From NCBI GenBank assembly GCA_937967235.1, contig CALCJW010000192.1, positions 4,533 through 68,532 of the forward strand: a stretch of 64,000 bases of DNA. Reading direction: 5' to 3'. Below, piece after piece: positions 1 to 62,633 of the stretch. Each line of letters begins with the position of its first letter. Position 1 is the first letter of the stretch. Made by a program: the position numbers and the translations under genes. Source of the DNA: an uncultured Clostridia bacterium. GTDB taxonomy: Bacteria > Bacillota > Clostridia > Oscillospirales > Oscillospiraceae. Under the pieces are notes generated by a model. That model searched no databases. It was not told the origin of the DNA and worked only from the letters and a program-made list of their open reading frames with translations.

Positions 1-1305
1 CATCGCGCAAATGCGGCCCAGCGCCTGCTGCACCGGGATGCGCTCCTGCGGGGCAAACACTGCCTGCCGGATGGTACAATGGGCCCGCGCCTGCTGTGCC
101 AGTGCCACGAATTCCCCAGCCAGCTCTTCCGGCTGCAGGAGCCCACCCGCTGCGGGCAGGCCGTGCAGACACTGCCGGAGCACCGTGCGCAGGCGCGCAT
201 AGTCCTGCGGTGGGTTGCAGGGGGTGAACATCAGCACCACATAACGCGGGTCGGCATATTCACACTCGAGCTGCCCGCCGCGCAAGGCATCCGCCAGCGC
301 GGTGCCGGTCATGCCAAGGGCCGCAGCGTCCAGCGTCAGCTTCAGCGGTTCCCGGCCCGGGCCGTCCAATGCCAGCGGCACCGGGCAGCCCGCCGCCTGC
401 GCCGCCGCGTTCAGCTCCCCGCGCAGAGCGGCAAGCCGGGCACAGCACCGCTGCAGCCCCACAGGGTAGGTTTCTGCCAATACCCGGTTGCAGGCATCCA
501 GCGACTGCAGGATCAGGTAGGACGGGCTGGTGGAGCCGAACAGGGCCAGTGCACCGCGCACTGCAGCTTCCTCCTGCACCGGGGCGTTCTCCCCCAGATG
601 CAGATATGCTCCGCCGGTGACCACCGGCAGGGTCTTGTGGGCCGAATCGCAGCACATGGCAGCCCCCAGTGCGATGGGGTGCAGCGACTCTCCGGGCAGA
701 AAGCGCAGGTAGGCCCCGTGGGCGTTGTCCACCAGCAGCGGCATCCCAAAGGTGTCGCACACAGCCGACAAGGCCCGGATGTCCTGCATTCCGCCCAGAT
801 AATCCGGGCTGGTGACGTAGACCCCAAAGGGGGTACTCCCTTGCCCGGTCAGCTCCTGCAGCGCTGTTGTCAGCATCTGTGCGGAGATGGGGCAGCTGCA
901 CAGCGCCCCGGCATTCTCTGCCGCAGGCCAGAGCCACCGGATGTCGAAGTCCAGCAGCGCGGCAGCGTACAGCAGGGCTTTGTGCGCGTTGCGGGCCGCC
1001 AGCAGTACCGGACGTTTTCCAGTGCGGGGTGCTGCCTGCAGTGCCAGACACAGCATGGCCCGGATGCACTGGGACGAGCCCTCGGTGCTGTAATAGGTGT
1101 GCTGTGTGCCGAACAGCCGGGTAGCGTTTGCTTCGCTTTGGGCAATGATGCCTTCCGGCTCGTACAGCTCGTCGGCGCCCCGGATCTCGGTCAGGTCCAG
1201 CGGCTCAAAGCCTAACAGGCTCTGGCCCTTGTGGCCGGGCATGTGCAGGCGGGAGGTGCCGGACTGTGCATAGCCGCGCACAAAATCCACGATGGGTGTG
1301 TCCAT
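1..1305 (-). CDS. Orn/Lys/Arg decarboxylase-fold PLP-dependent enzyme (3' end truncated by the window edge)
   Basis: Manual reverse translation from the ATG at 1305 gives MDTPIVDFVRGYAQSGTSRLHMPGHKG; the HMPGHKG motif is typical of the OKR decarboxylase major domain. This frame is missing from the ORF track because it runs off the window. The plus-strand ORFs here are antisense artefacts. Confidence 0.7.
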   Translation of the reverse strand, partial: MDTPIVDFVRGYAQSGTSRLHMPGHKGQSLLGFEPLDLTEIRGADELYEPEGIIAQSEANATRLFGTQHTYYSTEGSSQCIRAMLCLALQAAPRTGKRPVLLAARNAHKALLYAAALLDFDIRWLWPAAENAGALCSCPISAQMLTTALQELTGQGSTPFGVYVTSPDYLGGMQDIRALSAVCDTFGMPLLVDNAHGAYLRFLPGESLHPIALGAAMCCDSAHKTLPVVTGGAYLHLGENAPVQEEAAVRGALALFGSTSPSYLILQSLDACNRVLAETYPVGLQRCCARLAALRGELNAAAQAAGCPVPLALDGPGREPLKLTLDAAALGMTGTALADALRGGQLECEYADPRYVVLMFTPCNPPQDYARLRTVLRQCLHGLPAAGGLLQPEELAGEFVALAQQARAHCTIRQAVFAPQERIPVQQALGRICAM

Positions 1306-1307
1306 GC

Positions 1308-2771
1308 TTATTCGCAGGCTTCGCCGTCTGCGCAGGCGTTGCAGGTGGAACCCAGCTCAATGGGCACCTCGATGCCCTGAGCAGCCAGTTCCTGGTTTTC
1401 CGCCACCTTGATCATGATGGCGCACTCCATGCGCTTCTTGAACAGCTCACAGCCGTACTCGTACACACCGGTAATGCTGCCGGTGGCATGATAAGAGTTG
1501 GCAGCGCAGCCGCCGGAGCAATACAGCTTGGCCCAGCAGTCCTTGCACTCCTTGCGGGCATAGGCGTTGCAGTGCTTGAACTCATCCCGCACGGCCGTGT
1601 TGGTGACGCCCTTCCAGATGTCGCCCATCAGGTACTTGGGGTCGCCCACGAACTGGTGGCAGGGGTACAGGTCGCCCCAGGGGGTCACGGCCATGTACTC
1701 GGTGCCGGAACCGCAGCCCGAAATGCGCTTGTAGATGCAGGGGCCGCCGGTCAGGTCGATCATGTAGTGGTAGAAGGTAAAGCCACGGCCCTCGCGGTCG
1801 CGCTTGATCATCTCCTTGGCCAGGATCTCGTACTGCTCCTTCAGGATGGGCAGATCTTCTGCGGTCAGGGCGCTGGGGTCACCGGGCTTGGACACCACCG
1901 GCTCCATGCTCAGCTCGGTAAAGCCGAGGTCCGCCATGTGGAAGATGTCGTTGGTAAAGTCGGTGTTGTAGTGGGTGTAGGTGCCGCGCATGTAGTAGTT
2001 CTTGTCGCCGCGCTTCTTCACGAACTCCTGGAACTTGGGCACGATGGTGTCGTAACTGCCGCGGCCGGCATAGTCCTTGCGGAAGCGGTCGTTCACTTCC
2101 TTGCGGCCATCCAGGCTCAGCACCACGTTGTGGCACTCCTTATTGCAGAAGTCGATGACATCGTCGTCGATCAGCACACCGTTGGTGGTCATGGTAAAGC
2201 GGAAGTTCTTGTTGTGGATCTTCTCCTGCTCACGGCAGTAGGCCACCAGCTTTTTGACCATGTCAAAGTTCATCAGAGGTTCGCCGCCGAAGAAGTCCAC
2301 TTCCAGATTGCGGCGGGTGCCGCTGTTCTCGATCAGGAAATCCATGGCGCGCTTGCCCACCTCGAAGCTCATAAGGGCGCGGTCGCCGTGGTAGCGGCCC
2401 TGGGAGGCAAAGCAGTAGGAGCAGCTCAGGTTGCAGGTGTGCGCCACATGCAGGCACAGCGCCTTGACCACGGTGCTGCGGTTCTTGAAGTCGAACGCCA
2501 TGTTTTCGTAGACATCCGGGCTCCACAGCTTGCCGGCTTCCTTCAGGCTGGTCACGTCGTCGATGCACTGGCGCAGATCCTCTTCGGTGACGTCCGGGCG
2601 GCTGCCGTATTTGTCCATCATAGCCGAGACGATCTCGTCGGCAGTGTGATCCTGATACATGGCAATGACGTCATAGGCCACGTCATCCACCACATGCACC
2701 GAACCGCTGCAGGTGTCCAGCACGATGTTATAACCGTTCAATTGATACTGATGTACCATTTTACACTCCAT
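1308..2771 (-). CDS. scfB: SCIFF radical SAM/SPASM maturase
   Basis: CLHVAHTCNLSCSYCFA is a CxxxCxxC radical SAM motif, followed by C-terminal Cys-rich SPASM-like clusters. It lies directly downstream of the SCIFF peptide gene. Confidence 0.85.
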   Translation of the reverse strand: MECKMVHQYQLNGYNIVLDTCSGSVHVVDDVAYDVIAMYQDHTADEIVSAMMDKYGSRPDVTEEDLRQCIDDVTSLKEAGKLWSPDVYENMAFDFKNRSTVVKALCLHVAHTCNLSCSYCFASQGRYHGDRALMSFEVGKRAMDFLIENSGTRRNLEVDFFGGEPLMNFDMVKKLVAYCREQEKIHNKNFRFTMTTNGVLIDDDVIDFCNKECHNVVLSLDGRKEVNDRFRKDYAGRGSYDTIVPKFQEFVKKRGDKNYYMRGTYTHYNTDFTNDIFHMADLGFTELSMEPVVSKPGDPSALTAEDLPILKEQYEILAKEMIKRDREGRGFTFYHYMIDLTGGPCIYKRISGCGSGTEYMAVTPWGDLYPCHQFVGDPKYLMGDIWKGVTNTAVRDEFKHCNAYARKECKDCWAKLYCSGGCAANSYHATGSITGVYEYGCELFKKRMECAIMIKVAENQELAAQGIEVPIELGSTCNACADGEACE

Positions 2772-2826
2772 TTCAGATTACACAAAAAAATGCCGCCCGG
2801 CAAAGGCGGCATAGGGTTTGCAAAAA

Positions 2827-2973
2827 TTACTTGTTGCTGTTCTCGCACTGCTGGTTAGCCACGCCGCAGGAGGTCTTGCAAGCGGACTGGCAGGAAGTCT
2901 GGCACTCGCCGCAGCCGCCGGTCTTCACGCTCTTGGTCAGGTCACGAGTAGCAATCGTCTTAATACGTTCCAT
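2827..2973 (-). CDS. scfA: SCIFF (six cysteines in forty-five residues) ribosomal peptide precursor
   Basis: MERIKTIATRDLTKSVKTGGCGECQTSCQSACKTSCGVANQQCENSNK is a 48-aa peptide with the canonical GGCGECQTSCQSACKTSC core. The start was placed at the internal MERIK, not the ORF-track M. Confidence 0.9.
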   Translation of the reverse strand: MERIKTIATRDLTKSVKTGGCGECQTSCQSACKTSCGVANQQCENSNK

Positions 2974-3100
2974 AGTAGAAACCTCTCTAACTCTCAAAAT
3001 TTCCTCATGCCGGGGGACTGCCCCACCATGCATTTATCTTGGACTAGGATAACACATCCGACGCCTTCTGTCAAGATTTTTGTTCCGATAAATCGCCCCG

Positions 3101-3391
3101 TCATATCTGCGGCTGATATTTCGTCAGCACGGTGTGCAGCCCCAGCTCCCGTGCACGGGCCAGTAAGTACCGGTAGCGGCACAGCAGTGCCTGCCGCTCA
3201 TAAATGCGCTGCTCGATCAGGTCGGTGTCCACCTCCAGATCAAACATCATTTCGTTGCGCTTGAGGCAGAACAGGCATTCCTTCAGCTCCTCTTCCAGTT
3301 CCGGGTGGTAGCGCTCGTGTTCCGTATCCCGCGGGATGCGCGGTGACAGCAGGGTGTGTTCGTTTTGCATCGGTCGAAGTTGTTCCAGCAT
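3101..3391 (-). CDS. hypothetical small protein (host side)
   Basis: 96-aa ORF. AAAGAGGAGG sits upstream of the second ATG (MLEQLRP...). No recognisable domain. Confidence 0.4.
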   Translation of the reverse strand: MLEQLRPMQNEHTLLSPRIPRDTEHERYHPELEEELKECLFCLKRNEMMFDLEVDTDLIEQRIYERQALLCRYRYLLARARELGLHTVLTKYQPQI

Positions 3392-3414
3392 AGGCAGCAT
3401 CCTCCTCTTTGTGC

Positions 3415-3452
3415 GTCTTTGCATTGTTCTGATTTCCAGTATATGCAAAGAC
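3415..3452. promoter_or_regulatory. 10-bp perfect inverted repeat (GTCTTTGCAT-N18-ATGCAAAGAC) in the upstream region of the 3101..3391 gene; possible operator
   Basis: The palindromic arms were read directly. The repeat sits 24-60 bp upstream of the start codon. Confidence 0.3.
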
Positions 3453-3625
3453 CACGCAAAGGATGCCGGTTTGTGGGGTCAGGCAGGCAGCTGTTTTATG
3501 AATCGTTACAGTACCGCCACACACAGAAGCCGATTGCCCTGCTGTGCGATTCCAAACGAGATCAATTCTCCCCGATGAACACCAAAATCAGAATCCGGTT
3601 CATTATCGGATTCTGCCATTTTCCA

Positions 3626-3676
3626 CCAAAAAACAAAGCCCCAGGAAAGCTACGTTTTTTCGTTTCTTTCCTGGGA
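3626..3676 (-). terminator. rho-independent terminator; likely the original guaA terminator, displaced by prophage insertion
   Basis: Stem CCCAGGAAAG...CTTTCCTGGG followed on the minus strand by GCTTTGTTTTTT. It lies immediately outside the distal att repeat. Confidence 0.6.
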
Positions 3677-3690
3677 CTTTTAACAATTCA

Positions 3691-3709
3691 TCAATTATTC
3701 GAGCTCGAT
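3691..3709. repeat. prophage attachment-site core, distal copy (attR-like), tcaattattcgagctcgat
   Basis: A 19-bp exact copy of the sequence at 62634..62652, which overlaps the guaA stop codon and last codons. Confidence 0.7.
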
Positions 3710-3965
3710 TGAAGCAGGGCATTTCCTGCTCTTTTTGGAGTTTTTGAGGTGCGGTTTCACGTTGTTATTTCCTCGTATTCTTCCTGTTCTCCCTCTTTGA
3801 CGGGTGCCGTAATGCCATGTGAATGCCACAGCTCAAAAAAGAGGCCCCAGCGTCGAGGCCCTGCGCTCAGCGTAAGGTTTCGGACGTCGGGGCCTCTTTG
3901 TCCAAGAGAGCGTTTCCTGCATTTCATTTTACCGCAGCAGGAAGCAGCTGTCAAGCGGGAAGCAT

Positions 3966-4517
3966 TTAGTCCCAGATGTGCTCGTCAAGATACGCTTTCC
4001 ATTCAGCGTCTGCATCTGCAAGGGCCTTCTCGTAGTCATCACCATTGATGATGCGCTCCAGAGCCTTCTTGTATGCGCTTGCCTGAGCATAATTGGCAGC
4101 AAGCGAACCGGCTTCAGCCTTGCGGTATGCTGCGGCGCGGGGGTATTTCTTCCGCAGGGCTTCAATGCCTTCAGGGGTAACAGAAGGCTTGCTCGGAAAA
4201 ATTGCATCACCACTTTCAATGGCCTGGTTGAACGCCTCTCGGTAGTTCAGCAGAGCTTCGTTCGCTGCCTCCAGCTCTTTCAGGCCCTCGATCGCCTCGA
4301 TCTTCGCCTGCCGTTCCCGCGCCTTCTGTGCGTCCTCTTCGGCCTGCTTTTCCTTTTTGAGCAGGTACTCCATGATCTCCGGTTTGTGAGCCTTCGCGTA
4401 TGCAGAGTACGCCGGGACGTCCTCTTTGCTGACGCTCCGCGTTCCGATCTTGTCGCCCTGACGGAAGGTGTGAGTGACCTCCACGAAATGCTCGACGCAC
4501 ACATTGTCAAATTTCAT
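3966..4517 (-). CDS. hypothetical protein (prophage end, moron-like)
   Basis: AGGAGG lies 7 nt upstream of the ATG of MKFDNVCVEHF... Lys/Glu-rich C-terminal region with no recognised domain. Confidence 0.5.
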   Translation of the reverse strand: MKFDNVCVEHFVEVTHTFRQGDKIGTRSVSKEDVPAYSAYAKAHKPEIMEYLLKKEKQAEEDAQKARERQAKIEAIEGLKELEAANEALLNYREAFNQAIESGDAIFPSKPSVTPEGIEALRKKYPRAAAYRKAEAGSLAANYAQASAYKKALERIINGDDYEKALADADAEWKAYLDEHIWD

Positions 4518-4679
4518 AGTATTTCCTCCTGGCATTTGATGTGGTTAGTGTATTGTTCCTAACAATATTATACTCCTGTATATGCCGGGTGTCAATTTAT
4601 TTTTCTCTTTTGAGCGGATTTTATCTTGACAGGCGAGACAAAATCAATTATACTAGGATGTGGAAAAGGGGGACTCCAG

Positions 4680-4904
4680 ATGTCAGCAGCGAAAATCATC
4701 AAGCAGATCATGGTCGAAACAGGAACGACCGTCCGAGAGCTGGCTGGAAAGCTCGGATGCACGCCGCGGAGCTTGAGCAACAGGCTTTACCGGGACACAT
4801 TCACATATTCGGACTACATCAAAATTGTTTCCGCTTTGGGCTGTACGGTACAGACCGTCACTGGCACAGGGAAGGTCTTCCAGAACGAAAATGAACCAGA
4901 TTGA
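4680..4904 (+). CDS. small helix-turn-helix DNA-binding protein
   Basis: MSAAKIIKQIMVETGTTVRELAGKLGCTPRSLSNRLYRD has an HTH signature. The start was placed at the internal ATG with AAAGGGGGA upstream. Confidence 0.5.
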   Translation: MSAAKIIKQIMVETGTTVRELAGKLGCTPRSLSNRLYRDTFTYSDYIKIVSALGCTVQTVTGTGKVFQNENEPD

Positions 4905-4921
4905 AGGAAGGATGCTGAGTC

Positions 4922-5302
4922 ATGAAAAAATTTCTTTCCACGCTTGCTGTACTTTTGGCAGCCTGCTTGCTGCTGTGCTCGTGCGGCAAAAAGACGAAAT
5001 GCAGCGGTCAGGCTGTTTCCGTTGGCAAGAGCGCGATCGAAGCCGCGGACGACTACCTGGACAACAACCAGTCGGCACACGACGCTCTGGACAGGCTGGA
5101 CGAGCTCAAAGAGAAGATGGAGTATGTGGACTCTGAGGACGCATCAAAGCCCACCCACAGTGCAGACTACTCCGTTTCCTCCGATCTAGTTCTGCTGTCC
5201 CACGAGATCACGTTTGACAGCATCGACCACGATCGGTACGACAAAATTTTGGAGAAGCGGAACGACATAGCAAAAACCATCGGCGAGAAAAAGCGCAAAT
5301 GA
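4922..5302 (+). CDS. putative lipoprotein
   Basis: MKKFLSTLAVLLAACLLLCSCGKK has a signal peptide with a lipobox. Confidence 0.55.
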   Translation: MKKFLSTLAVLLAACLLLCSCGKKTKCSGQAVSVGKSAIEAADDYLDNNQSAHDALDRLDELKEKMEYVDSEDASKPTHSADYSVSSDLVLLSHEITFDSIDHDRYDKILEKRNDIAKTIGEKKRK

Positions 5303-5405
5303 GATCAGACCGGCAGGCTTTCAACGGCCCGCCGGTTTTTGCTTTCAGCACTCAAATTCCAAGTCCACAGTTGAAAGCTATGTGCAAAATGTGGAAAACA
5401 AAATA

Positions 5406-5453
5406 AGGCCCTCCCCAGACCATTGCGATCAGGGAGGGCCTTGCTTATTTTTG
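5406..5453 (+). terminator. rho-independent terminator
   Basis: AGGCCCTCCC...GGGAGGGCCT stem followed by TTGCTTATTTTTG. Confidence 0.5.
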
Positions 5454-5647
5454 CTTATTCGCGGTTTACGCTGACTTTTTCGCTGAATTTTTGTAAATCG
5501 CGCGAATAACGCGCACCGCGCGTTTTCCAGCAGCAGACCATTTTCGTTGCGCCACGAAAATGGTTATCCACGGGTTGCTACCTCACGGGGTACTTCTTCA
5601 TCCGTCATATCGAAGCTCCTTCATGTTTTCGTGGCGTCACGCAGACA

Positions 5648-6046
5648 TTACTTGCTGACGCCCTTGTTGCGGCTGATCTGGGCCTGGATGCGGGTCGTCA
5701 GATAGCCCACGGTATCGCCGCCGCTGATCTCCTTGATGTAGTCCAGAGCATCTTTGCTCAGGCTCTTAATCGCTACCGAGATCGCACGGCTCAACGCCTG
5801 GGCCTGCTCCTCCTCTTTGAACGTGCCGGCCTTTTTCAGATCGTCAACGTAGGACTGGTTCATGGCTGCCACGGCGTCGGCCACCGCGTTTGCGATCTCC
5901 TGGACGAGGCGACAGGTCACTTCGCTTTTGGCGTTCTCCTCAGCAGATGCGCCGATCGAGGCCGCGGCCTTCTTCACGCAGGCAGTTGCAATGGGCAGAC
6001 AGACCATCAGGACGGCCCAAGAGATTTCACGCAGAATGTTGTTCAT
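5648..6046 (-). CDS. hypothetical membrane-associated protein downstream of the lysis genes
   Basis: 132-aa ORF with an N-terminal hydrophobic segment. Confidence 0.45.
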   Translation of the reverse strand: MNNILREISWAVLMVCLPIATACVKKAAASIGASAEENAKSEVTCRLVQEIANAVADAVAAMNQSYVDDLKKAGTFKEEEQAQALSRAISVAIKSLSKDALDYIKEISGGDTVGYLTTRIQAQISRNKGVSK

Positions 6047-6064
6047 AGTCGTTCTCCTCTCAAA

Positions 6065-6730
6065 TCACAGTTTTGCCAGGTACTTATCCGCACCCGACAG
6101 TTTTTTCCAGGAAGCAGGGCCGCAGATGCCATCTGCAACAAGCCCGTTCTGCTTCTGGGCAGACAAAAGGGCCTGCGTGGTGGCAGGCCCGAAGTTTCCA
6201 TCCTCTTTGATTTTGAGCAGCTTTTGCAGCAGGATGATCGCCGATCTGTTCGCTGCGCCGACGCTCCCCTGCCGGATGGTGGGCAGGATGAAGCTATTGT
6301 ACGTCGTCGAGGGATAGACACCCGGAGAGGTACAGAGCCAGGTTGCCTTGCCTGCGCGGGTGTCCGCGTGGCACATAGCAGCCTCGGAATGCCAGTAGAT
6401 GCCGATGCCGCCGAAGCCCACCGCCTGCGCGATGATGCCCAGCGCGACCGGATTCACGACCCGATCGAGGGTGCGCCAGTCGGCAGCAAACCCATAGAGG
6501 TGCTTGCTGCGCGAGCTGCCGTGTACCTTGGCGTTGTGCGTGATGCAGCGATACCCGGACGTGACCTTCAACTTGACGCCCAGCACATCCCGGATGCTCT
6601 GGAGCTTGTCTACGAGCTCCAGATCGATCATCTGGGCGTCGCACTTCTTGCACTGGCATTCAAATTCATCCCTGGTAAAATTCTTCGTCAGCGCGGTTTT
6701 GTCCCCGCGCTTATAGGTTACGATGCTCAT
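6065..6730 (-). CDS. endolysin: peptidase M15 (D-Ala-D-Ala carboxypeptidase-like, M15_3) plus C-terminal peptidoglycan-binding domain
   Basis: DEFECQCKKC...TSGYRCITHNAKVHGSSRSKHLYGFAAD is zinc-peptidase M15-like. The C-terminal LQKLLKIKEDGNFGPATTQALLSAQKQNGLVADGICGP is PG_binding_1-like. Confidence 0.85.
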   Translation of the reverse strand: MSIVTYKRGDKTALTKNFTRDEFECQCKKCDAQMIDLELVDKLQSIRDVLGVKLKVTSGYRCITHNAKVHGSSRSKHLYGFAADWRTLDRVVNPVALGIIAQAVGFGGIGIYWHSEAAMCHADTRAGKATWLCTSPGVYPSTTYNSFILPTIRQGSVGAANRSAIILLQKLLKIKEDGNFGPATTQALLSAQKQNGLVADGICGPASWKKLSGADKYLAKL

Positions 6731-6748
6731 TGAAAACAGCTCCTTAAT

Positions 6749-7189
6749 TCATTCCTCCATGTTGTCCTGTTCGGACTTCTGTTTCAGGATTTCGATAGCC
6801 CCGGTCAGTGCCTTGGGGATTGGCACCCCCATCAGGCCAGCATTTTCGATGATGGACAGCGTCTCGTTTGCGATGAATGCGATCACGGTAGCATCTCGGA
6901 TAAAATTAGACCCCATCACCGTGTCGAGGTGGCAGGCCACCAGCACGATCAGCAGGGTTACACCTTTGCGGCACAACCCTTTCCACCCGGCGCGGGATTC
7001 CAGTGCGCCGTCTTTGCTCTTCGGGCTGGCGTGGAAAACCCCGGCAACCACAAGCCCCGTGATGTAATCGACTGCCATGAACAGGATCAGCGTCGAAAGT
7101 GCCGCATCCCATCCGCCGAATTGACTTGCAATCAGACTGCCGATTACTCCAACCATGGTGCAAACTCCATTCTTCATTACATCACCCAT
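6749..7189 (-). CDS. phage holin (holin_4_1 / toxin-secretion-lysis family)
   Basis: 146 aa with multiple TM segments: MKNGVCTMVGVIGSLIASQFGGWDAALSTLILFMAVDYITG. Confidence 0.75.
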   Translation of the reverse strand: MGDVMKNGVCTMVGVIGSLIASQFGGWDAALSTLILFMAVDYITGLVVAGVFHASPKSKDGALESRAGWKGLCRKGVTLLIVLVACHLDTVMGSNFIRDATVIAFIANETLSIIENAGLMGVPIPKALTGAIEILKQKSEQDNMEE

Positions 7190-7412
7190 CTGCTTTTTAC
7201 CTCCCGGACGTGGAAGTTCTTGCTCAGGGCCTTGTTCCCGTCCTTCGCATACGAATAGGCTTTAATTGCCATTGCTACCATCTCCCTTCATGCCCAGATC
7301 AGCACCGCACCCGCGCATGGCACAGTCCACCATCAGCACCCCGAACTCGGCCCGTTCGGTGCTCATGTTTTCGCCCTGCGCTTCAAGGCGGGTCAGCAGC
7401 CGCTCGACCAGC

Positions 7413-7583
7413 TCAGGCCACGTCATAGTCGTCACCGGTGATGCGCTTGTAATCCTCGGCGGTGATCTCGCCCTTGTTTACGCGCTCGGCCAGAACTTTC
7501 TTCACGCCAACGCGGCGGGATGCGGGCATCTCTGCCCAAGTCTTAGTGCCTGCAATCAGGCGGTTTGCCCAGATAATGTTCAT
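7413..7583 (-). CDS. XkdX-like small phage protein
   Basis: Manually translated 56-aa MNIIWANRLIAGTKTWAEMPASRRVGVKKVLAERVNKGEITAEDYKRITGDDYDVA with an AAGGAGG RBS. Below the ORF-track size cutoff. Confidence 0.55.
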   Translation of the reverse strand: MNIIWANRLIAGTKTWAEMPASRRVGVKKVLAERVNKGEITAEDYKRITGDDYDVA

Positions 7584-7595
7584 GGTGATACCTCC

Positions 7596-7799
7596 TTATT
7601 CCTTGTTCAGCGCTGCGTCCAGCTCACACAGCGCGGTTTCGATGTCGGTCAAGCGCTTCTCGTTGGCCGCGTCCTGTTCGCACAGGGCATCTTCCATTTC
7701 AGCCACACGGTCGGGCAACTGTTCGTGCTCCTGCTGCTTCTTGGCTGCGGCTTCCTTCTCCTGCCGGGTGGGCAGATTGTCCTTTTTCCACTGAATCAT
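7596..7799 (-). CDS. small coiled-coil phage protein (XkdW position)
   Basis: 67-aa Glu/Lys/Ala-rich ORF. Confidence 0.4.
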   Translation of the reverse strand: MIQWKKDNLPTRQEKEAAAKKQQEHEQLPDRVAEMEDALCEQDAANEKRLTDIETALCELDAALNKE

Positions 7800-7813
7800 G
7801 GTGACTGTCCTCC

Positions 7814-9073
7814 TTACTGGAATGCGCCGGAGACGGCTTCGATGTAGCCGCCCTCGCCGGATTCGCCGCGCTCCACGCTGACGCGGAAATTGAATGCAGC
7901 GCCAGCCGTGGCGGTCTTATTCTCAAAGACGATGTTTACGCCTTTTTTTACCTCGGTCGTGGCATCCTGCCAGACCGGGGAGCTGTCGAGTGCGTTGTTG
8001 GTCACTTCGGCTTTGAACTTCGCATCATCGGGGATGGAGCCGGTCACCTGAAGCACGGCAACGGTAATGTCGCCCTCAACGGCCAACGGTTCAGCCAGCG
8101 TCACGCTTGCGGCGTGGACGGCCTTGGTAAAGGTCGCGGACGTGCTGACGGTTTCCTTGCCGTCGCTCACCTCAACGGTGATGGTGTGGTTGCCGTTCAG
8201 GATTTTCTGGAATCCGGCAGCGCTGGCCGTCTGCTCAAAGGTCAGGGCCGTGCCGCTGGCAACGCCGGTGCGGGTCTTGGTGGTCTTGCCGTCCAGCTTT
8301 TCGGTGACGGTCAAGGTGTCGCCGTCGGCATCCCTGACGGTGTACTTCCACGCAAAGGCCGCGTTCTTCTGCCCCAGAGCTGCGCCGTCCGTGCTGACGG
8401 TAGGTGCAGTGTTGACACTGACCGTGCCGTCGTCAGAGACCACGAGTGTAGAGGGAAGAATGAAAGCGGGGCGAACACCATAGGAGCCGCTACACCAGTA
8501 GCTGCCGTTGGAGCCAACCGAACTGACGTACCAGACGTTGCCGGTGCTGCCGGTGTACGGAGAGCGCAGCCACCAGACGGCAGCGGAGCTGCCATTGTAT
8601 GCAATACGCTTGCTGTTACCGCCGGAGCTGTTGCCAAAGTATGCCAGCCTCACGCCGTCCTTCGGGAAATAGCCGTTGTCGCTGGTCGTCCAGCCAACCT
8701 CATAACCAGACAGCAGGAACACTTTGGTGCTCAGGCCGTTGGAGCCGGTGGCAAGGCTGCCACCGGAACCAGTGCCGTTCTGATACGGAATCTTGACCTG
8801 CTTGATAGCGTTGCGAATGTCCGCGTCAATCAGGTTGAAGAACGTACCGTTCAGGTATGTGTGGATGCTGGAATCCTTGTAGGAGTTATTGTTGCCGAAC
8901 GTGGACGTTGTGTAGATGTCCTTCATCAGCAGCCACGTTCCGGCGCAACTCGAATCATAGGTGCTGGTATTCGGATTGCCCTGCTGCACGACAATAAAAT
9001 CTTTGGACGCGCCGTTGACCTTGATTTTGACAATGCTGCCAACGGCTTTCGTGCCCAGTTTTACGTTTGCCAT
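7814..9073 (-). CDS. DGR target protein: tail fibre / receptor-binding protein with a lectin-like variable region and C-terminal Ig-like extension
   Basis: True start MANVKLGT has AAGGAGGT upstream; the ORF-track N-terminal extension overlaps the RT gene. Residues ~163-203 (SAAVWWLRSPYTGSTGNVWYVSSVGSNGSYWCSGSYGVRPA) coincide with the VR. The WLRSP...GVRPA pattern is typical of CLec-fold DGR variable regions. Confidence 0.8.
   Translation of the reverse strand: MANVKLGTKAVGSIVKIKVNGASKDFIVVQQGNPNTSTYDSSCAGTWLLMKDIYTTSTFGNNNSYKDSSIHTYLNGTFFNLIDADIRNAIKQVKIPYQNGTGSGGSLATGSNGLSTKVFLLSGYEVGWTTSDNGYFPKDGVRLAYFGNSSGGNSKRIAYNGSSAAVWWLRSPYTGSTGNVWYVSSVGSNGSYWCSGSYGVRPAFILPSTLVVSDDGTVSVNTAPTVSTDGAALGQKNAAFAWKYTVRDADGDTLTVTEKLDGKTTKTRTGVASGTALTFEQTASAAGFQKILNGNHTITVEVSDGKETVSTSATFTKAVHAASVTLAEPLAVEGDITVAVLQVTGSIPDDAKFKAEVTNNALDSSPVWQDATTEVKKGVNIVFENKTATAGAAFNFRVSVERGESGEGGYIEAVSGAFQ
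8465..8585 (-). repeat. DGR variable region (VR)
   Basis: 121 bp aligning to the TR at 10493..10613 with 16 mismatches. Fifteen of them are at positions where the TR coding strand has A. Confidence 0.85.
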
Positions 9074-9093
9074 TGTTACCTCCTTGTTTTCGT

Positions 9094-10323
9094 TCAGGCC
9101 CACGGCATGATCTCCGCAGGCCGCGTGTTCTGCGATACAGAGAGGGACAGGGCTTTGTGCTGCTTCTTGTAGATGCAGCGGCATTGCCGCGCCCGCCGTC
9201 TGTCACGCGCGAGTTTGTTCGAGTTGATTTTTCGATGGATAGGGATTTTACAGTCAAGCAATTTTTCGAGCCGGTCAGCGTACTTGCGGCGTAAAGAGTA
9301 GGTTTCACCATGGGCAGCATGGGCATCCCACGCATCAAAGCTCCGCAGGATTTCCTGCTTGGTCACTTCGCCTGCGGGGTATGCCGTCTCCCAATACTTG
9401 ATCTTGTTCTTCATCCGCTTAGAGCTATCCCGGCGCAGCTTTTGGATGACCGCGCCGGTGTCGGTCAGGTAGCTATGGAATCCCAGAAAATCAATACCGT
9501 TCCGCAGCGGGAAAATGGCGGTTTTCTGGTTCAGCTCAAGGCCGTAACTGTCCATGAGCGCCCGAACATCCCGGAGAATGCACTGCAATTTCTTCTTGTC
9601 CGAACAGATGATATAGAAATCATCCATGTATCGGCCATAGTATTTGATGCGGTACTTCTCTTTGATGATGTGGTCGAACTCATCCAAAAACATCAGCGCA
9701 AAGAGCTGGCTCGTCTGGTAGCCCAGCGGCAAGCCGTCCTCCATCACGTCGATGTAGATGCAAAGCAGCTCATAGACACGCGGGTCAACGCCGCGCTTGT
9801 CCAGCACGGCTTTGAGCTTGCGTTTTAGCTTCCGGTGGTCGATGCTGGCGAAGAAATGCCGCACGTCGCCTTTCAGCACCCAGCCGTCCGCGCCGTGGCC
9901 CTCACGGCGGTAATAGTCCACCATGTGAGTTTTCAGGCGCATCAGACCGTCGTCTGTGCCTTTGCCGGTCTGGCTTGCGTGGCTGTCCCGGATAAAGCTC
10001 TTTGTCAGAGCATCATACAGGATGTTATCGACCAGCGCGTGCAGCACCACCTTGTCCACAAACGCCGGGGCGTGTACCATGCGGCGCTTCGGCTCGTAGA
10101 CGGCAAAGACCTCAAACTTACTTGGCACATAGCATATCTGCTGCCGGATATCGCCGCCCGGCTGGCGTACATCGCGCACGGCCAGCTTGCGGGACAGCTT
10201 TTCCGTGCAGGCCAGCGCCTGCGCTTCGTACTCGATTGTTTTGCTTTTACTGTGCTTTCCCTTCCGGGCTTCAAGGTAGGCTTTGTAAAGTACCTCAAAG
10301 CTGCACAGTTCTTCGTATGTCAA
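9094..10323 (-). CDS. DGR reverse transcriptase
   Basis: 409-aa protein containing RYMDDFYIICSD, the YMDD RT active site, and finger/palm motifs. It lies between the TR and the target gene. Confidence 0.9.
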   Translation of the reverse strand: MTYEELCSFEVLYKAYLEARKGKHSKSKTIEYEAQALACTEKLSRKLAVRDVRQPGGDIRQQICYVPSKFEVFAVYEPKRRMVHAPAFVDKVVLHALVDNILYDALTKSFIRDSHASQTGKGTDDGLMRLKTHMVDYYRREGHGADGWVLKGDVRHFFASIDHRKLKRKLKAVLDKRGVDPRVYELLCIYIDVMEDGLPLGYQTSQLFALMFLDEFDHIIKEKYRIKYYGRYMDDFYIICSDKKKLQCILRDVRALMDSYGLELNQKTAIFPLRNGIDFLGFHSYLTDTGAVIQKLRRDSSKRMKNKIKYWETAYPAGEVTKQEILRSFDAWDAHAAHGETYSLRRKYADRLEKLLDCKIPIHRKINSNKLARDRRRARQCRCIYKKQHKALSLSVSQNTRPAEIMPWA

Positions 10324-10492
10324 AATGACCCTCCGCTGGTTCGCGTTACGGTAGTGGGCTGCATCCGGCAGGGATGGCCCGCCTCAGCGGGATGTATTTA
10401 TCACTTGCCTGCATCGGCAAGCGACGGGATATAGCCTCCTTTGATGGGCGCACTACTTTCAGCCGGGCTTACTCGTTTCACGGTTCCATCAG

Positions 10493-10613
10493 AGCGGGGC
10501 GAACACCATAGGAGTTGCTGCACCAGTTGTTGTTGTTGGAGCCATCCGAATTGACGTTCCAGACGTTGTTGGTGTTGTTGGTGTTCGGAGAGCGCAGCCA
10601 CCAGACGGCAGCG
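10493..10613 (-). repeat. DGR template repeat (TR)
   Basis: Non-coding 121-bp partner of the VR. It is rich in AAC triplets on the coding strand (plus-strand gttgttgtt). Confidence 0.85.
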
Positions 10614-10646
10614 TCAGAAAATAAGCTATACCCCTATGCAAAGCGG

Positions 10647-11249
10647 TCAGCCGCTTGCTTTTTCTTCTTCCGGGTCAGGCGGTGCGAGGGCGGCCCTCAG
10701 GGCTTTTACAAGCATGTAAAGCCGTTTCTTTTCTTCCGCCTGCCGGAGGGACTCGGCACGTTCGCGTTCCGACGTCAGCCACTTCATAGCCGGGTATTTC
10801 ACGTCCGTTACCTTTTTCGTCCAGATTCCGGATTTCTTCACGCTGATAATGCCGTCTTCTGTGCAAAGTTGCAGATATTGCAGCATCAAAGAGCAGCCAT
10901 CAATGACGTCACCGATCTTCTCAAGGCGCTTGTCATAGTCGGTCTGGAAATTGACGTTGTTTGCTGCGTAGGCATCCAGCAGGATTTGCCGGGCAGTCAT
11001 GCGAATGCCCTCTCCATAAAGCCGGTAGGTGCTTTTGGTAAAGCCTTCCCGGTTTCTCGTATCGAGGGCATGAACGGCAGTTTCGCACACTCTCTGAATG
11101 TCCTTGACATCTTCAAGGGCCGCCGCTTTTTGAAAGACCGCCCGCGCATCGCTCCGGCTTATATCGTCGGACACGGTGCGCGTTGCCCGCAGTGTGTAGC
11201 GCAGGAGCTCTTTTGCATTACGCCCAACTTTGAACGGTTGTTCAGCCAT
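10647..11249 (-). CDS. basic ~200-aa protein in the Avd position of the DGR (candidate accessory variability determinant, not a canonical Avd)
   Basis: Lies immediately upstream of the TR on the same strand. The start MAEQPFKV overlaps the upstream stop as TGATG. Arg/Lys-rich. No recognisable Avd four-helix-bundle motif. Confidence 0.45.
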   Translation of the reverse strand: MAEQPFKVGRNAKELLRYTLRATRTVSDDISRSDARAVFQKAAALEDVKDIQRVCETAVHALDTRNREGFTKSTYRLYGEGIRMTARQILLDAYAANNVNFQTDYDKRLEKIGDVIDGCSLMLQYLQLCTEDGIISVKKSGIWTKKVTDVKYPAMKWLTSERERAESLRQAEEKKRLYMLVKALRAALAPPDPEEEKASG

Positions 11250-11635
11250 CAGAACTCCACCCTCGCCTGTTCGGCGTTCCACGCACCGGTCACGGTCAGG
11301 CCGTCCAGACTGCCGAACGTGGCAGAGAACGGATTTTTCGTGACATTCGTGCCGAACTTCAGCTCAATGGCCTTGATGCTGGCGTTCATGGCTGCCACAC
11401 TGGCGCGGATGTCGCTGTGGGCGTTCTCCGCGTTGTTGTGGGCATCCACCGCCGCGCTGATGCGCTGGTCGGTCTCGGCCTTTTTGTAGCCGTCCAAATC
11501 CCACCGCTGGCTCTCGGTCAGGTGGCCGTCTGCATCCAGCGTGGCAATGCCGCCCGGCACACCGATCTGGTCAGTGCGGACAACATCTTCATCCGGCGCC
11601 TTGCCGGGGCCTGCGTTAAAAGGACCGTATGCCAT
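11249..11635 (-). CDS. tail fibre-associated protein
   Basis: IGVPGGIATLDADGHLTESQ resembles the GGxAxLDxxGKxP motif common in phage fibre proteins. Confidence 0.5.
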   Translation of the reverse strand: MAYGPFNAGPGKAPDEDVVRTDQIGVPGGIATLDADGHLTESQRWDLDGYKKAETDQRISAAVDAHNNAENAHSDIRASVAAMNASIKAIELKFGTNVTKNPFSATFGSLDGLTVTGAWNAEQARVEF

Positions 11636-12085
11636 TTAGGTTCCCCCTTCCTGTGCATCCGTGTATTTCACGGTGCTTGTAATGTGATACTGTGCAGAAA
11701 TTTTCTCGGTCGGAGCTTTGGCGGCCCTCAGCCGCAGCTTTCCTTCGAGGCTTTCGGTCGCAATAAAGCCCACCGCACCCGCCACATCGTAAAATTTCGG
11801 CAGTACCGTAACATCCACAATGTCGGTAGCCAACAGGCCCGCAATAGGGATGTCACAATAAAAATAGCCGGGGAAAGAATCATCTTCGCCCCAGCCATCG
11901 ACCGGAATCGTAAAAGACACCGCAGCCGTGACATCCTGCTTTTCGTGCAGGATGTCATCAGTTTCCTCGAATCCGTTTGCAGTTGCTTCGGAAAGGTCTC
12001 CGAGTGCGGTGTCGCACTGCTTGATGTGGCTGCAAAGCGCGGCAAGCCCTGTGCCCAAAAGCGTTTTGATCTTCGCTTTTGCCAT
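11636..12085 (-). CDS. hypothetical phage tail protein
   Basis: 149-aa ORF, syntenic within the fibre module. Confidence 0.45.
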   Translation of the reverse strand: MAKAKIKTLLGTGLAALCSHIKQCDTALGDLSEATANGFEETDDILHEKQDVTAAVSFTIPVDGWGEDDSFPGYFYCDIPIAGLLATDIVDVTVLPKFYDVAGAVGFIATESLEGKLRLRAAKAPTEKISAQYHITSTVKYTDAQEGGT

Positions 12086-12105
12086 AGAGCTTACCTCCTC
12101 ATGTC

Positions 12106-12975
12106 TTAGTCAGCCAGCAGAGCGGCGATCTCCTCTGCGGAGAAGTCCTCCACGTCCTCGTCGTGCAGAACATTCTCCGGCTCGGCGTACACGACGACTT
12201 CCTTGCCGTCGATGTTCACATTGCCGTTGGTGGAGCTGGCGGCAGTCTTGGTTGCGCCCTCAGAGACACCGGCCAGCTTTTCGCCCTCGGCATCGCTCAT
12301 CAGGCGCTTGCCAGCCTCGGCGCCCACGAAGTCCGCAGGCTTCTTGCCGCTGTCGGTCAGATTGCCCTCGCCATCCAGCGCAGCAAAGTTGCCGGTGGTG
12401 GCACCGGTGACCTTATCGGCCTTGCCGGAGATGTCCACTTCCTCAGGGGTGGGAACATACAGACCATCGTCCTTCAGAACCAGGGCGTTGCCGGCAGCAG
12501 CGGAAACGTTAACCTTGACATCCACCTCATAACCAGCGATGGTAACGGTGGTGGATGCATCCTTGCCAGTGGCCTTGGCCTTATAGGTATCGACCAGAGC
12601 AGCCATGTTCAGGAAAGAGTAGGTGCAGCTGTCGGGGTTCTCACCCTTGACGGCCAGAACCATGACCGGCTTGCCGTCCAGCTTGGGGTCGGTGGCGCCG
12701 GGATAGGTGGTGTCGGAGAACTTGAACTTGCCGACGAACGCGGTCTTGGTCTGGTCGAGGAACATCTCGGTCGGGAAGTCAATGGAGAAAGCAGCTGCGC
12801 CGGTCATGCCGGTGTTGGAGTAGAAGTTGACGGTGTTACCGGTCACCTTCAGGGCCTTAATGGCGGCGTTGGCAGCGGCCTCGACCGGGGTGAAAGCGTC
12901 CTTCTTGACGAAAGTCTTCTTGATCTCTGCGGTCAGGTTGCGGATGGTGGTCTTGGTAGAAATCTGCTTAGACAT
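12106..12975 (-). CDS. tail fibre protein
   Basis: TGNFAALDGEGNLTDSGKKPADF fibre motif; Gly/Thr/Ala-rich. Confidence 0.55.
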   Translation of the reverse strand: MSKQISTKTTIRNLTAEIKKTFVKKDAFTPVEAAANAAIKALKVTGNTVNFYSNTGMTGAAAFSIDFPTEMFLDQTKTAFVGKFKFSDTTYPGATDPKLDGKPVMVLAVKGENPDSCTYSFLNMAALVDTYKAKATGKDASTTVTIAGYEVDVKVNVSAAAGNALVLKDDGLYVPTPEEVDISGKADKVTGATTGNFAALDGEGNLTDSGKKPADFVGAEAGKRLMSDAEGEKLAGVSEGATKTAASSTNGNVNIDGKEVVVYAEPENVLHDEDVEDFSAEEIAALLAD

Positions 12976-12993
12976 AGTAGTGTCCTCCTAAAA

Positions 12994-14121
12994 TTATTTC
13001 AGCATATCAACGATTTCCTGCTGCGTTTCTTCCTCGTTCAGCAGGTCTTCGCTCGTCATAACGGTTTCTTTGCGGACAGTCAGCGCGTTTGCGCTGTCAA
13101 AGTCAAGGCCTTCGCCAATGCGGACGGCAATAGCGCCGCTCGCGTCACGCTTCAAGCCCTGACCGATGCTTACGCTACCGGTTTCACCCGAACCACCTCC
13201 TTTCCCGAACAGGGTTACGGTCGTCTGAATGTCTGCTTTCGGGATGCGCTGAGAAAAGAATCTGATGAAACCATCATGCGTTTCGCACCCGTTCAGGACA
13301 CCCGCTTTGGTCGTAGTATAGAAACTGCCGGGAGATACAACGCCAACGGGTACAAGCTCACTGGTGCTGTCCGACAGTTCTGCATCATAGATACACTGGT
13401 AGTAATCCATACCACCGGCATTTTCGTAATCATCCTCGCTGCGGGCGGGCTTCCACCCGTCCGCTGCAAGAGTGAGTTCGTAGGAGCCATAGTAGCCGCC
13501 GCCCGTACCGCCGTCCACCTGCTCCTTGATAAGGGCCTTGACCTGTTCTTCGTTCAGGATTTCCCCGGATTCAGACAGGTTCTTCACGGCAGCGCTGACC
13601 GCTGCCGTGATGGTCGCTGCATGGGCATCAGCGGCTGCGTTGTGCTTCTCAATTTCCGCCTTGACCAGCTTCATCAACGTCTGCACCTGAGGGTCAACGG
13701 TGATGGACAAGTTGGCTTCTGCCGAAACGGCCAGCAGAACGGCGATTTCAAACGAAAACTCGGAGTTTGTGCTTGCGGCAGGGACTTCAATGCCGCGCTC
13801 GTCCTGCATCAGGAACAGGAGTGTTTCGGCGCCGTCATTCAAGACACCGAAAACGCCGATCTGGTGCATAACGTAGGTGTCTGCTGCACCGGTGACCTGA
13901 ATGCTGACCTTACGGGCGGTTTTGCCGTCGTCTGTGACGGTTTCGATGCCCAGCAAGGACAGCTCGTGCGTGTTGCCGCTGACTGCGGTTTCTGCCGACA
14001 AGTCGGTGTCAACAGAGCCGGTGCCGCTCACGGCGCGGGTGATGGTCAGTGCGCCGCCGGAGAGAGATTCCGACAGCAGGGCGGCACCGGCTTTCGTGTA
14101 ACTGGATTTTTCCCAACTCAC
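12994..14121 (-). CDS. tail fibre / host-specificity protein (XkdV position)
   Basis: 375 aa, Gly-rich, positioned after the baseplate genes. Confidence 0.5.
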   Translation of the reverse strand: MSWEKSSYTKAGAALLSESLSGGALTITRAVSGTGSVDTDLSAETAVSGNTHELSLLGIETVTDDGKTARKVSIQVTGAADTYVMHQIGVFGVLNDGAETLLFLMQDERGIEVPAASTNSEFSFEIAVLLAVSAEANLSITVDPQVQTLMKLVKAEIEKHNAAADAHAATITAAVSAAVKNLSESGEILNEEQVKALIKEQVDGGTGGGYYGSYELTLAADGWKPARSEDDYENAGGMDYYQCIYDAELSDSTSELVPVGVVSPGSFYTTTKAGVLNGCETHDGFIRFFSQRIPKADIQTTVTLFGKGGGSGETGSVSIGQGLKRDASGAIAVRIGEGLDFDSANALTVRKETVMTSEDLLNEEETQQEIVDMLK

Positions 14122-14891
14122 GTTGTCTGTCCTCCAATCGTAATAGTTACGGTTTCATGTGTGTGTGCAAGTCTGCCTGCGGCATAGGCTTGCGCGGAAA
14201 CGGATTTCGGGGTGATGATTCCGGGGATTTCGACTTCCGCCATCATCCTTGCCGAAGCGGCGGCACCGGCAGTGTATGCCGTGGCTCCAACAGCTCGCGG
14301 CTTGATTACGCCAGGCAGCCGGATGGTGCAGGACATAGCCGTGCCGAGCTGAGCGACGGCAATGTATGCAGGCGGAGCTTCGGGCTGATAGGTAAATGCA
14401 ATGGAAAAAGGGATATGTGCCGGGACCTTTTTTGACAGAATGTCGAGAACGTCACTTGCAAAAAAGAAAAAATCGTTTTGGGGCGATGTGGAGATGTAAA
14501 GTTTGTTGTTGCGCTGATCGTCAAACGGTTCGAGCTTTATAATAGACGGCGATCCAGTATAGGCTTGAAGCATATCAGACAGAAGCGTCGCAGAAATTTT
14601 TCCAAATCCAATGATATAGGATTTAATGAGCCTGCGCCGTTCTTCCAACGTGCGCTGGCTTCGCGCTCTGATATAAAGAAAGCGTTCCAATTCAGCAATG
14701 GCCGCCTCGTCCATCGAGTCGATAAAGCCATTCTTGTAGATGTTCTCAATAGCATCCTGCGCATCATCCAGCAGCCTTCCGTTCGCTTTGAGGATAGCTA
14801 CCATTTCCCAAACCTCACGATAATACCGCGGGTAGTAGGAGATCAGCTCCTCGTAGTTGCTGGCAAACTGCCGGTTGTAGAATTTCTTCAT
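14118..14891 (-). CDS. XkdU-like (DUF2313) baseplate-associated protein
   Basis: Synteny with PBSX XkdS-T-U; N-terminal MKKFYNRQFASNYEELISYYPRYYREVWEM. Confidence 0.55.
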   Translation of the reverse strand: MKKFYNRQFASNYEELISYYPRYYREVWEMVAILKANGRLLDDAQDAIENIYKNGFIDSMDEAAIAELERFLYIRARSQRTLEERRRLIKSYIIGFGKISATLLSDMLQAYTGSPSIIKLEPFDDQRNNKLYISTSPQNDFFFFASDVLDILSKKVPAHIPFSIAFTYQPEAPPAYIAVAQLGTAMSCTIRLPGVIKPRAVGATAYTAGAAASARMMAEVEIPGIITPKSVSAQAYAAGRLAHTHETVTITIGGQTT

Positions 14892-62561: not shown

Positions 62562-62589
62562 TGCCAAAATAATGCCACAGGGCAAAAAG

Positions 62590-62631
62590 AAAAGCCGAAA
62601 ACCCGGATGATTCCTAGGGTTTTCGGCTTTT
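62590..62631. terminator. bidirectional rho-independent terminator between int and guaA
   Basis: AAAAGCCGAAAACCC...GGGTTTTCGGCTTTT. Confidence 0.6.
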
Positions 62632-62633
62632 TG

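Follow-up and report, generated by a model that had tools for sequence, protein, structure and literature searches.

Faecalibacterium is among the most abundant and health-associated bacteria of the gut. A stretch of 64,000 nucleotides from an uncultured Clostridia bacterium (contig CALCJW010000192.1 of GenBank assembly GCA_937967235.1, forward-strand positions 4,533 to 68,532), here called the window and numbered from its first letter, carries a diversity-generating retroelement (DGR) made up of a template repeat (TR), a variable repeat (VR), a reverse transcriptase (RT), an accessory gene and a target gene. The element sits where the tail module of an integrated myovirus ends; the phage is recognizable by its sheath, tape measure, baseplate J, portal and terminase genes. 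It is very probably an intact DGR of the kind found in the Faecalibacterium phages FP_Toutatis and Lelie, working through a pathway like that of phage BPP-1.

DGRs were described in 10 of 18 Faecalibacterium prausnitzii phages, including FP_Toutatis (NC_047915), for which no Avd homologue was reported and the target function was left unassigned (Cornuault et al., 2018, PMC5883640). In Lelie (PP479942), a TR, an RT and two VRs were reported, both VRs lying at the C-terminal end of DUF6273 domains (2024, PMC11792537). Proteins of the target class were named 'tentaclins' in 2023, and the FP_Toutatis group is among the phage groups encoding them (Int J Mol Sci, PMC10743442). The same paper leaves open whether the tentaclin ligand is bacterial, epithelial or immune. 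[quoted passage not shown] In the BPP-1 ribonucleoprotein, sequences on either side of the TR pair with each other (the 'cPRT stop'), the TR and the spacer form a short duplex that fixes the cis-priming site, and stem-loops further downstream bind Avd.

FP_Toutatis and Lelie share 91-93% nucleotide identity with the window over positions 7383-12000 (over 7000-12000, 93% for Lelie and 91% for FP_Toutatis) and have the same gene order: a tail fibre, three unassigned genes, an Avd-like gene, TR, RT, a DUF6273 target and XkdX. The FP_Toutatis TR has the length and frame of the window TR and differs from it at nine non-adenine positions. RefSeq labels the FP_Toutatis proteins 'Avd protein of DGR' (gp79), 'Reverse transcriptase' and 'Hoc-like head decoration'. 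With the cassette, the target class and the relatives all published, the DGR is correctly recognized but already known, and its value as a discovery is small. The remainder of both phages is unrelated to the window phage at the DNA level, and the mode of integration differs, a tyrosine integrase next to guaA in the window phage standing against a serine recombinase in Lelie and FP_Toutatis. Lelie also has a second, small DUF6273 target (orf58) with a second VR, for which the window has no counterpart. The VR of this gene (L004 40024-40671) is shorter, at about 100 nt, and the gene itself belongs to the early region, at a distance of 14 kb. Added here beyond the published work are covariation in the spacer RNA, including a duplex that brackets the TR, and the restriction of the Lelie match to 7231-14138.

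The original prediction, made from the sequence alone, described a 121-bp TR and VR matching end to end, with 15 mismatches at TR adenines (plus-strand T against C or A) and one exception. Pairwise alignment reproduces this description. On the minus strand, which encodes the whole element, the TR (10493..10613, 121 nt with 29 adenines) and the VR (8465..8585) align without gaps and differ at 16 positions, 15 of which are coding-strand TR adenines (ten A>G and five A>T). The exception, plus-strand g10520 against a8492, is a TR C opposite a VR T at codon position 3 (TGC>TGT) and is synonymous. Partial homology extends 5 nt beyond the 121 nt, to 10488/8460, with two extra mismatches; over this 126-nt span, 15 of 18 mismatches fall on its 30 adenines (hypergeometric p about 8e-9). 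No adenine mismatch falls in codon position 3; the 15 are spread over positions 1 and 2, mainly of AAC codons.

In the target frame the TR reads AAVWWLRSPNTNNTNNVWNVNSDGSNNNNWCSNSYGVRPAL. It is rich in AAC, with 12 of its 17 adenine-containing codons being AAC or AAT, and randomization of its adenines makes about 1.3e17 protein variants possible, stop codons being unreachable. A 28-nt 5' flank and a GC-rich 16-nt 3' end (GGTGTTCGCCCCGCT), both free of adenine, are identical in TR and VR. The VR had been placed in frame at residues ~163-203 of the target, and this fits the 419-aa protein read from ATG 9073, in which residues 163-203 form the C-terminal end of the DUF6273 domain. A whole-window search for further VRs, as proposed with the prediction, found no second VR or target in the 64 kb, either with adenine-masked TR scans (full length, half length and 36-nt windows) or with a motif scan and tblastn using Lelie orf58.

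Relatives were gathered by searching IMG/VR with the RT, which gave 80 loci, 58 of them holding both repeats. When each VR is compared with its own TR, TR adenines account for 930 of the mismatches in these 58 loci and all other bases for 21. An identical 121-nt TR is present in 43 loci, no two of which have the same VR, and all 34 TR-adenine columns vary among them, with a mean of 1.32 bits against 0.025 bits for the 87 non-adenine columns. The DGR is active in nature across these relatives, and its natural variation is adenine-specific. The prediction had staked itself on a VR that varies and on mismatches biased to adenines, and both are found in the relatives, at the scope of the family and not of the individual prophage. 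Non-adenine mismatches in the relatives amount to 21 in about 5,000 sites, or 0.4%, and published misincorporation by the BPP-1 enzyme (bRT) at U, C and G is 0.4-1.7%. Since the two rates fit, the single non-adenine mismatch of the window needs no special explanation.

Homing can also be placed in time. At the nine non-adenine positions where the window TR differs from the Toutatis-type TR, the window VR carries the window base in nine of nine, so that homing took place after the TR lineages split, a case of concerted evolution. An Avd protein identical to that of the window is encoded by 10 loci, nine of which keep a TR; these TRs are of one type, two positions off the window TR. In six of the nine (L108, L112, L113, L116, L117 and L109), the VR fits its own TR at all or nearly all non-adenine positions, L109 deviating by two 5' bases, and the six loci have six different VRs that vary at adenine positions.

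Several of these loci carry irregular repeats. In L109 (6665-6785), Toutatis-type sequence is limited to the first 10 nt of the VR. The VR of L114 (6667-6787) is Toutatis-type at the nine non-adenine positions, and its own TR is window-type. Both loci suggest recombinant cassettes, or homing that replaced part of the VR only. In L110 (4600-5410), a Logan contig (ERR15653722) with the identical Avd, a VR-like repeat with 18 adenines and many adenine-position changes occupies the TR position; the locus lacks both the RT gene and the DUF6273 part of the target, and a 209-aa open reading frame (ORF) comes immediately after. Recombination between TR and VR seems to have deleted ~2 kb here, a way in which a DGR could be lost in nature. 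The window TR has G at 10518 and 10521 (TR positions 96 and 93), where the TR has A in nine of nine TR-bearing loci with the identical Avd, giving 29 adenines against 31; the window VR has G at both sites. The data fit either mutation of the TR followed by copying or a VR G that arose through adenine mutagenesis.

The RT (9094..10323, minus strand, 409 aa, TTG start) lies between TR and target, where an RT with a YMDD motif had been predicted. It matches Pfam RVT_1 (E 4.8e-19), and its best PDB match is bRT (8ub7_A, E 3.8e-24), followed by Cas6-RT-Cas1 (3e-8). The pairwise identity to bRT is 27%. The catalytic YMDD at residues 231-234 aligns to the YMDD of bRT, R80 stands opposite bRT R74, and LGYQTSQ (residues 200-206) fits the DGR signature [I/V/L]GxxxSQ opposite bRT I181-Q187. 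Both R74 and I181 of bRT promote adenine mutagenesis, in the work that also defined the signature (PMC7826257). A full alignment that exposed an RT without catalytic residues had been named as fatal to the prediction; the catalytic and DGR-signature motifs are both kept. No NCBIfam model matches the RT at cut-off, and sub-threshold matches are only to group II intron, retron and Drt models. The same DGR layout recurs in relatives whose RTs are only 61-64% identical.

The non-coding spacer between TR and RT (10324..10492, minus strand, 169 nt) is a conserved structured RNA, kept in relatives whose RT identity goes down to 51% and whose G+C differs widely. RNAalifold on 13 sequences gives 42 pairs, 27 of them with compensatory changes, against 12.8 +/- 2.1 in shuffles and 6-11 with slid partners. 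When the bracketing duplex is included, the full structure has 34 compensatory pairs among 51 (shuffles 17 +/- 2, slid partners 9-13). This duplex of 12 bp joins GGGGUAUAGCUU (10623..10634, minus strand, 10-21 nt upstream of the TR) to AGGCUAUAUCCC (10426..10437, minus strand, in the spacer 56-67 nt downstream of the TR); across the 13 loci, compensatory changes occur at 9 of the 12 pairs, and pairing holds in 96.8% of cells. A second duplex, of 7 bp, is formed between the last TR and first spacer bases (CU.CUGAUG, 10487..10494) and CAUCA.AG (10439..10446), both on the minus strand. The latter lies within the invariant block AUCAAAGG, its own bases at 10439-10446, CAUCAAAG, being invariant as well. 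Hardly any change is seen in this duplex (98.7% of cells paired), and by analogy with the TR-Sp duplex of BPP-1 (PMC6182149) it may have a priming role, making its spacer strand a candidate cis-priming site.

Directly after the bracketing duplex stands the stem-loop GUCGCUUGCC-GAUGCA-GGCAAGUGAU (helix 6, 10400..10425, minus strand; eight pairs, three compensatory), which the comparison with BPP-1 marks as a candidate Avd-binding hairpin. An outer helix, CCGCUG/CAGCGG (helix 7, 10333..10390, minus strand), has four of six pairs compensatory, encloses a 12-bp stem-loop with 10 of 12 pairs compensatory (helix 8, 10353-10383, minus strand) and ends at the Shine-Dalgarno sequence of the RT, GGAGGG (10329-10334). 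Every helix is intact in the window sequence. A small hairpin over the avd stop codon, GCGG-CUGA-CCGC (10643..10654, minus strand), was read in the sequence; its stem changes on both sides in relatives (ACAG/CUGU in L060, GGCGG/CCGCC in L083), and it was left out of the formal covariation count because the alignment register shifts. The scaffold as a whole has the same element types as the BPP-1 ribonucleoprotein. No sequence is shared between the window spacer and the BPP-1 spacer (RT-10 motif), so that the priming nucleotide is not transferable by alignment. Neither the window nor 20 distant loci gave an Rfam match at gathering score.

The accessory gene (10647..11249, minus strand) encodes 200 aa with an isoelectric point (pI) of 9.0. 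The original prediction had a basic ORF of about this length at the Avd position, and the protein indeed matches PHROG 3206, 'Avd protein of DGR' (E 2e-29), the same PHROG to which BPP-1 Avd belongs (8.8e-29). The best Foldseek matches of its AlphaFold (AF2) model are pentameric four-helix bundles of the 23S-rRNA intervening-sequence (IVS)/Avd type (2rld and 2gsc), and the low-confidence model compares with the BPP-1 Avd chains 8ub7 and 4dwl at a TM-score (TMt) of 0.68-0.76. An extra C-terminal helix, long and basic, covers residues 137-188 (pI 9.7 for residues 136-200). The connection to Avd comes only from PHROGs and the fold search. Searches of the PDB by phmmer and by profile gave no match, and NCBIfam gave only an unrelated, sub-threshold TviE (E 0.029). 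An 86%-identical homologue in nr is named '23S rRNA-intervening sequence protein'. The protein is treated here as a long, divergent Avd relative with an additional basic C-terminal helix in its predicted fold.

Some annotations in this part of related cassettes involve the TR itself. The TR of FP_Toutatis (gp80, L001 5526-5678) is annotated in RefSeq as a 50-aa 'DUF6273 domain-containing protein'. In some relatives (P0036, P0038 and P0044), the Avd ORF is called as 256 aa, running into the TR and gaining a DUF6273 Pfam match. Such TR-derived DUF6273 annotations are probably artefacts of the open frame of the TR.

The target gene (7814..9073, minus strand) encodes 419 aa with DUF6273 and Ig-like domains, the 'tentaclin' architecture. 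Its start is ATG 9073, preceded by the Shine-Dalgarno sequence AAGGAGG; a 456-aa ORF starting at 9184 was rejected as an over-extension that overlaps the RT gene. Pfam DUF6273 covers residues 45-208 (E 1.7e-36), with the VR inside. The 11 residues altered by the VR (173-196) are predicted to lie on or around strands 179-183 and 189-193 (predicted local distance difference test, pLDDT, of at least 90). After the VR, 216 residues follow, and the Ig-like extension that had been proposed there is found as two beta-sandwich domains (7817..8422, minus strand): an Ig-like domain at residues ~218-320 and a lower-confidence C-terminal domain at 321-419, likely a virion anchor by comparison with the tentaclins (PMC10743442). 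Over the C-terminal 200 aa, identity to a homologue is 48%; the RTs of the two loci share 61%. The head may have a C-type-lectin fold with the VR on a surface beta-hairpin; in two fold searches, the matches listed were dominated by Ig-like domains. No sequence match to Mtd was found in the PDB, and the internal VR does not agree with an Mtd-type tail fibre, whose VR lies at the extreme C-terminus. Among solved structures, the target domain occurs only once, at the N-terminus of a gut-bacterial IgA protease. If the target is a 'fibre protein' or receptor-binding protein, as the original prediction supposed, the DGR would alter host tropism.

Clustered at 90% identity, homologues of the target (E < 1e-5) form more than 8,000 distinct groups. 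Identity to the window target is at most 94% among the 120 homologues listed, and the neighbouring Avd protein occurs in exact form in 407 blocks of a public assembly collection, so widespread is the cassette. Evidently, VR variation divides otherwise identical target proteins into separate clusters. The closest genomic matches come from F. prausnitzii and related metagenome-assembled genomes, and more distant RT relatives (53-62% identity) occur in Oscillospiraceae.

The DGR belongs to a larger shared cassette (7231..14138, minus strand) that comprises a tail-collar fibre gene, three genes without assigned function, the DGR and two small genes. The order of accessory gene, TR, RT and target, placed between tail-fibre and lysis genes, agrees with the predicted layout within a tail-fibre module and, as had been pointed out, differs from that of BPP-1. 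The tail-collar fibre gene (12994-14121) is separate from the target. Against the first 50 kb of the 53.4-kb Lelie genome, nothing in the window aligns except positions 7231-14138, at 90% identity, and the window phage is therefore otherwise unrelated to Lelie. Megablast against 50,697 phage records gave no near match for 14200-39000 and a single 76% match for 1-7200, over 1402-2753. Loci with the identical Avd differ in their baseplate and lysis genes on both sides. These different flanks, together with the match that is limited to the cassette, indicate that the tail-fibre-plus-DGR block behaves as an exchangeable module. A promoter scan of 7000-12200 found no sigma-70-like site, which makes transcription of the DGR from the late operon probable.

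Other parts of the window phage complete the picture of its surroundings. A tyrosine integrase (61476-62561, plus strand) adjoins the GMP synthase gene guaA (62638-63963, minus strand), and 61476-63963 is probably the right-hand prophage end and attachment region. In the lysis region (5648-7189, minus strand), holin-like genes at 5648-6046 (phrog_13712) and 6749-7189 (Phage_holin_4_1) flank an endolysin gene (6065-6730) of the M15 peptidase / PG_binding type; loci with an identical DGR have other lysis cassettes, for example Glyco_hydro_25. The early region encodes a 1275-aa protein (49019-52846, minus strand) in which an SbcD-like phosphoesterase (Metallophos) is fused to an SbcC/SMC-like ATPase. 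Two large ORFs of 378 and 530 aa in 79-2858 (plus strand) have no Pfam or PHROG match, and the 76% match over 1402-2753 is to an unannotated human faecal phage scaffold, MT837768.

For the priming and stop sites, the protein-RNA contacts, the Avd oligomer, the integration route, and the virion location and ligand of the target, we infer the following scheme. One folded transcript would span the 3' end of the avd-like gene, the TR and the spacer. In it, the 12-bp duplex would close the TR into a loop, and the 7-bp duplex of the TR end with the invariant AUCAAAGG would position a spacer nucleotide as cis-primer. The downstream stem-loops may dock an oligomer of the Avd-like protein and the RT. 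From about position 119 the RT would copy the TR toward its 5' end, stopping at the bracketing duplex, faithfully at U, C and G and at random opposite the 29 adenines. The cDNA would then replace the VR in the target, guided by the adenine-free identical flanks (28 nt at the 5' side and the 16 nt of GGTGTTCGCCCCGCT at the 3' side). In this way 17 codons, or about 1e17 proteins, could be rewritten in the beta-hairpin region of the N-terminal, lectin-like DUF6273 head, which Ig-like spacers would hold away from the conserved C-terminal anchor. The target ligand is most likely a variable surface glycan or protein of Faecalibacterium, in which case VR variation would retune adsorption.

An intact DGR with a BPP-1-like pathway is argued for by its parts and their integrity, the adenine-specific variation across relatives, the concerted evolution of TR and VR, and the RNA covariation. 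A number of observations weigh against it. The accessory model is all-helical but of low confidence (pLDDT 62), and the accessory protein matches nothing in Pfam even at E 10, bAvd and 23S_rRNA_IVP included. The profile comparison with Avd that the original prediction had called for came out divided: hhalign against BPP-1 Avd found no match, and PHROG 3206 and Foldseek gave support. A BPP-1-type hairpin 3' of the VR is absent, the DNA there folding no better than shuffles (z -0.91); the sequence is variable among relatives and not kept as a hairpin. In BPP-1, a GC-rich initiation of mutagenic homing (IMH) sequence with a hairpin/cruciform forms the target recognition element, a feature that is not universal among DGRs. 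The RNA alignment holds 13 related sequences only, and the bracketing duplex was first noticed by inspection; its pairs were counted afterwards, on a concatenated alignment without the TR interior. Two adenines, at positions 93 and 96, have been lost from the window TR relative to the TRs of its closest relatives. Lelie, 93% identical, showed no VR variation in its sequencing reads (PMC11792537), so that activity may be rare or conditional. The target, finally, matches PHROG 10993, 'Hoc-like head decoration' (E 2.6e-145).

That the repeats are an ordinary duplication or gene-conversion tract, next to an RT of unrelated retron or group II intron type, is effectively refuted: the sub-threshold NCBIfam matches that would favour it involve no model at cut-off, both the window and 58 relatives have adenine-specific mismatches (930 against 21 in the relatives), and the RT has the DGR signature and BPP-1 RT as its best solved relative by 16 orders of magnitude. 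It is improbable, though a far more serious possibility, that the cassette in this prophage was recently silenced or fires very rarely, its VR being the frozen product of past homing. Such a history would suit the constancy of the Lelie VR in reads, the synonymous non-adenine difference that has accumulated, the two adenines lost against sister TRs, and the decay routes seen in related loci (the RT deletion of L110, and the VR of L114 mismatched to its own TR). Against a silenced copy stand three full-length ORFs with intact motifs, RNA helices that are all intact, and a single non-adenine mismatch that lies within the expected RT error rate; moreover, the VR has every lineage-specific non-adenine base of its own TR, which dates homing after TR divergence.

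A different question is what an active DGR diversifies. The target may not be a host receptor-binding protein but a Hoc-like decoration or adhesin of the virion surface, anchored by its C-terminal domain, for non-host ligands such as mucin glycans, IgA or further components of the gut; the DGR would then tune gut persistence and not host range, a reading that we consider credible but rather unlikely. Its support comes from the PHROG 10993 label and from the order of an N-terminal head, Ig-like spacers and a conserved C-terminus, which is Hoc-type polarity and not that of a typical tail fibre. A tail-collar fibre gene is already present in the cassette, separate from the target; the one solved structure with the domain comes from the N-terminus of an IgA protease, and mucosal or immune ligands are among the open hypotheses of the tentaclin authors (PMC10743442). 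However, the gene lies distally in the tail/baseplate module and moves together with the tail-fibre gene in a single cassette, and the PHROG label rests on Ig-like domains that are also common in tail proteins. Gut surface ligands are also fairly constant, which makes hypervariation harder to justify, a point made as well in PMC10743442. A more specific version is unlikely: the target would be a lectin-like virion adhesin for mucin glycans or secretory IgA and no host-range determinant, on a tail-fibre-plus-DGR block portable among unrelated Faecalibacterium myoviruses. If true, the cassette would diversify the interactions between the mammalian host and a prophage carried by a dominant gut commensal.

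The locus is of value in three respects. It offers a clean natural data set of adenine-restricted variation, and a covariation-supported RNA scaffold for a DGR of a Bacillota phage, with BPP-1-like elements and concrete sites to mutate. It also shows a tail-fibre/DGR block that moves between otherwise unrelated phages.

Below the Rfam threshold, the window spacer resembles RT-2 (RF03077; Weinberg et al., 2017, PMC5737381), in a weak match over the full length that falls exactly between TR and RT. The two have the blocks GAC.AGUAG-hairpin-GAAAGCAG and AAAGGA in common. The window scores 17.1 bits and three relatives 21.9-27.7, against a gathering score of 40, and membership in RT-2 was rejected on this score and on the lack of a match at threshold in the 20 distant loci. 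The four-helix bundles of the 23S rRNA IVS protein/Avd family (2rld, 2gsc and 4dwl) are the best fold matches of the accessory model, from which the window protein differs in being about 70 residues longer, with its extra basic C-terminal helix.

The element and that of BPP-1 (mtd-avd-TR-brt) have in common a homologous RT, accessory proteins of the same PHROG, a TR immediately after avd, a structured TR-RT spacer with bracketing and TR-end:spacer duplexes, and adenine-specific mismatches. In BPP-1, however, the target lies upstream of avd and the VR at the extreme C-terminus, whereas the window target lies downstream of the RT and its VR is internal, at residues 163-203 of 419. The BPP-1 target is the Mtd trimer and not a DUF6273 protein with Ig-like domains, and its Avd has 128 aa against the 200 aa of the window protein, which does not match Pfam bAvd. 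The spacer sequences are unrelated, and the hairpin after the VR of BPP-1 has no equivalent in the window. The target finds its closest likeness in the tentaclins: it shares with them an N-terminal DUF6273 head that contains the VR, Ig-like domains after this head and, last, a conserved C-terminal domain, and with two beta-sandwich domains after the head it stands at the short end of that family.

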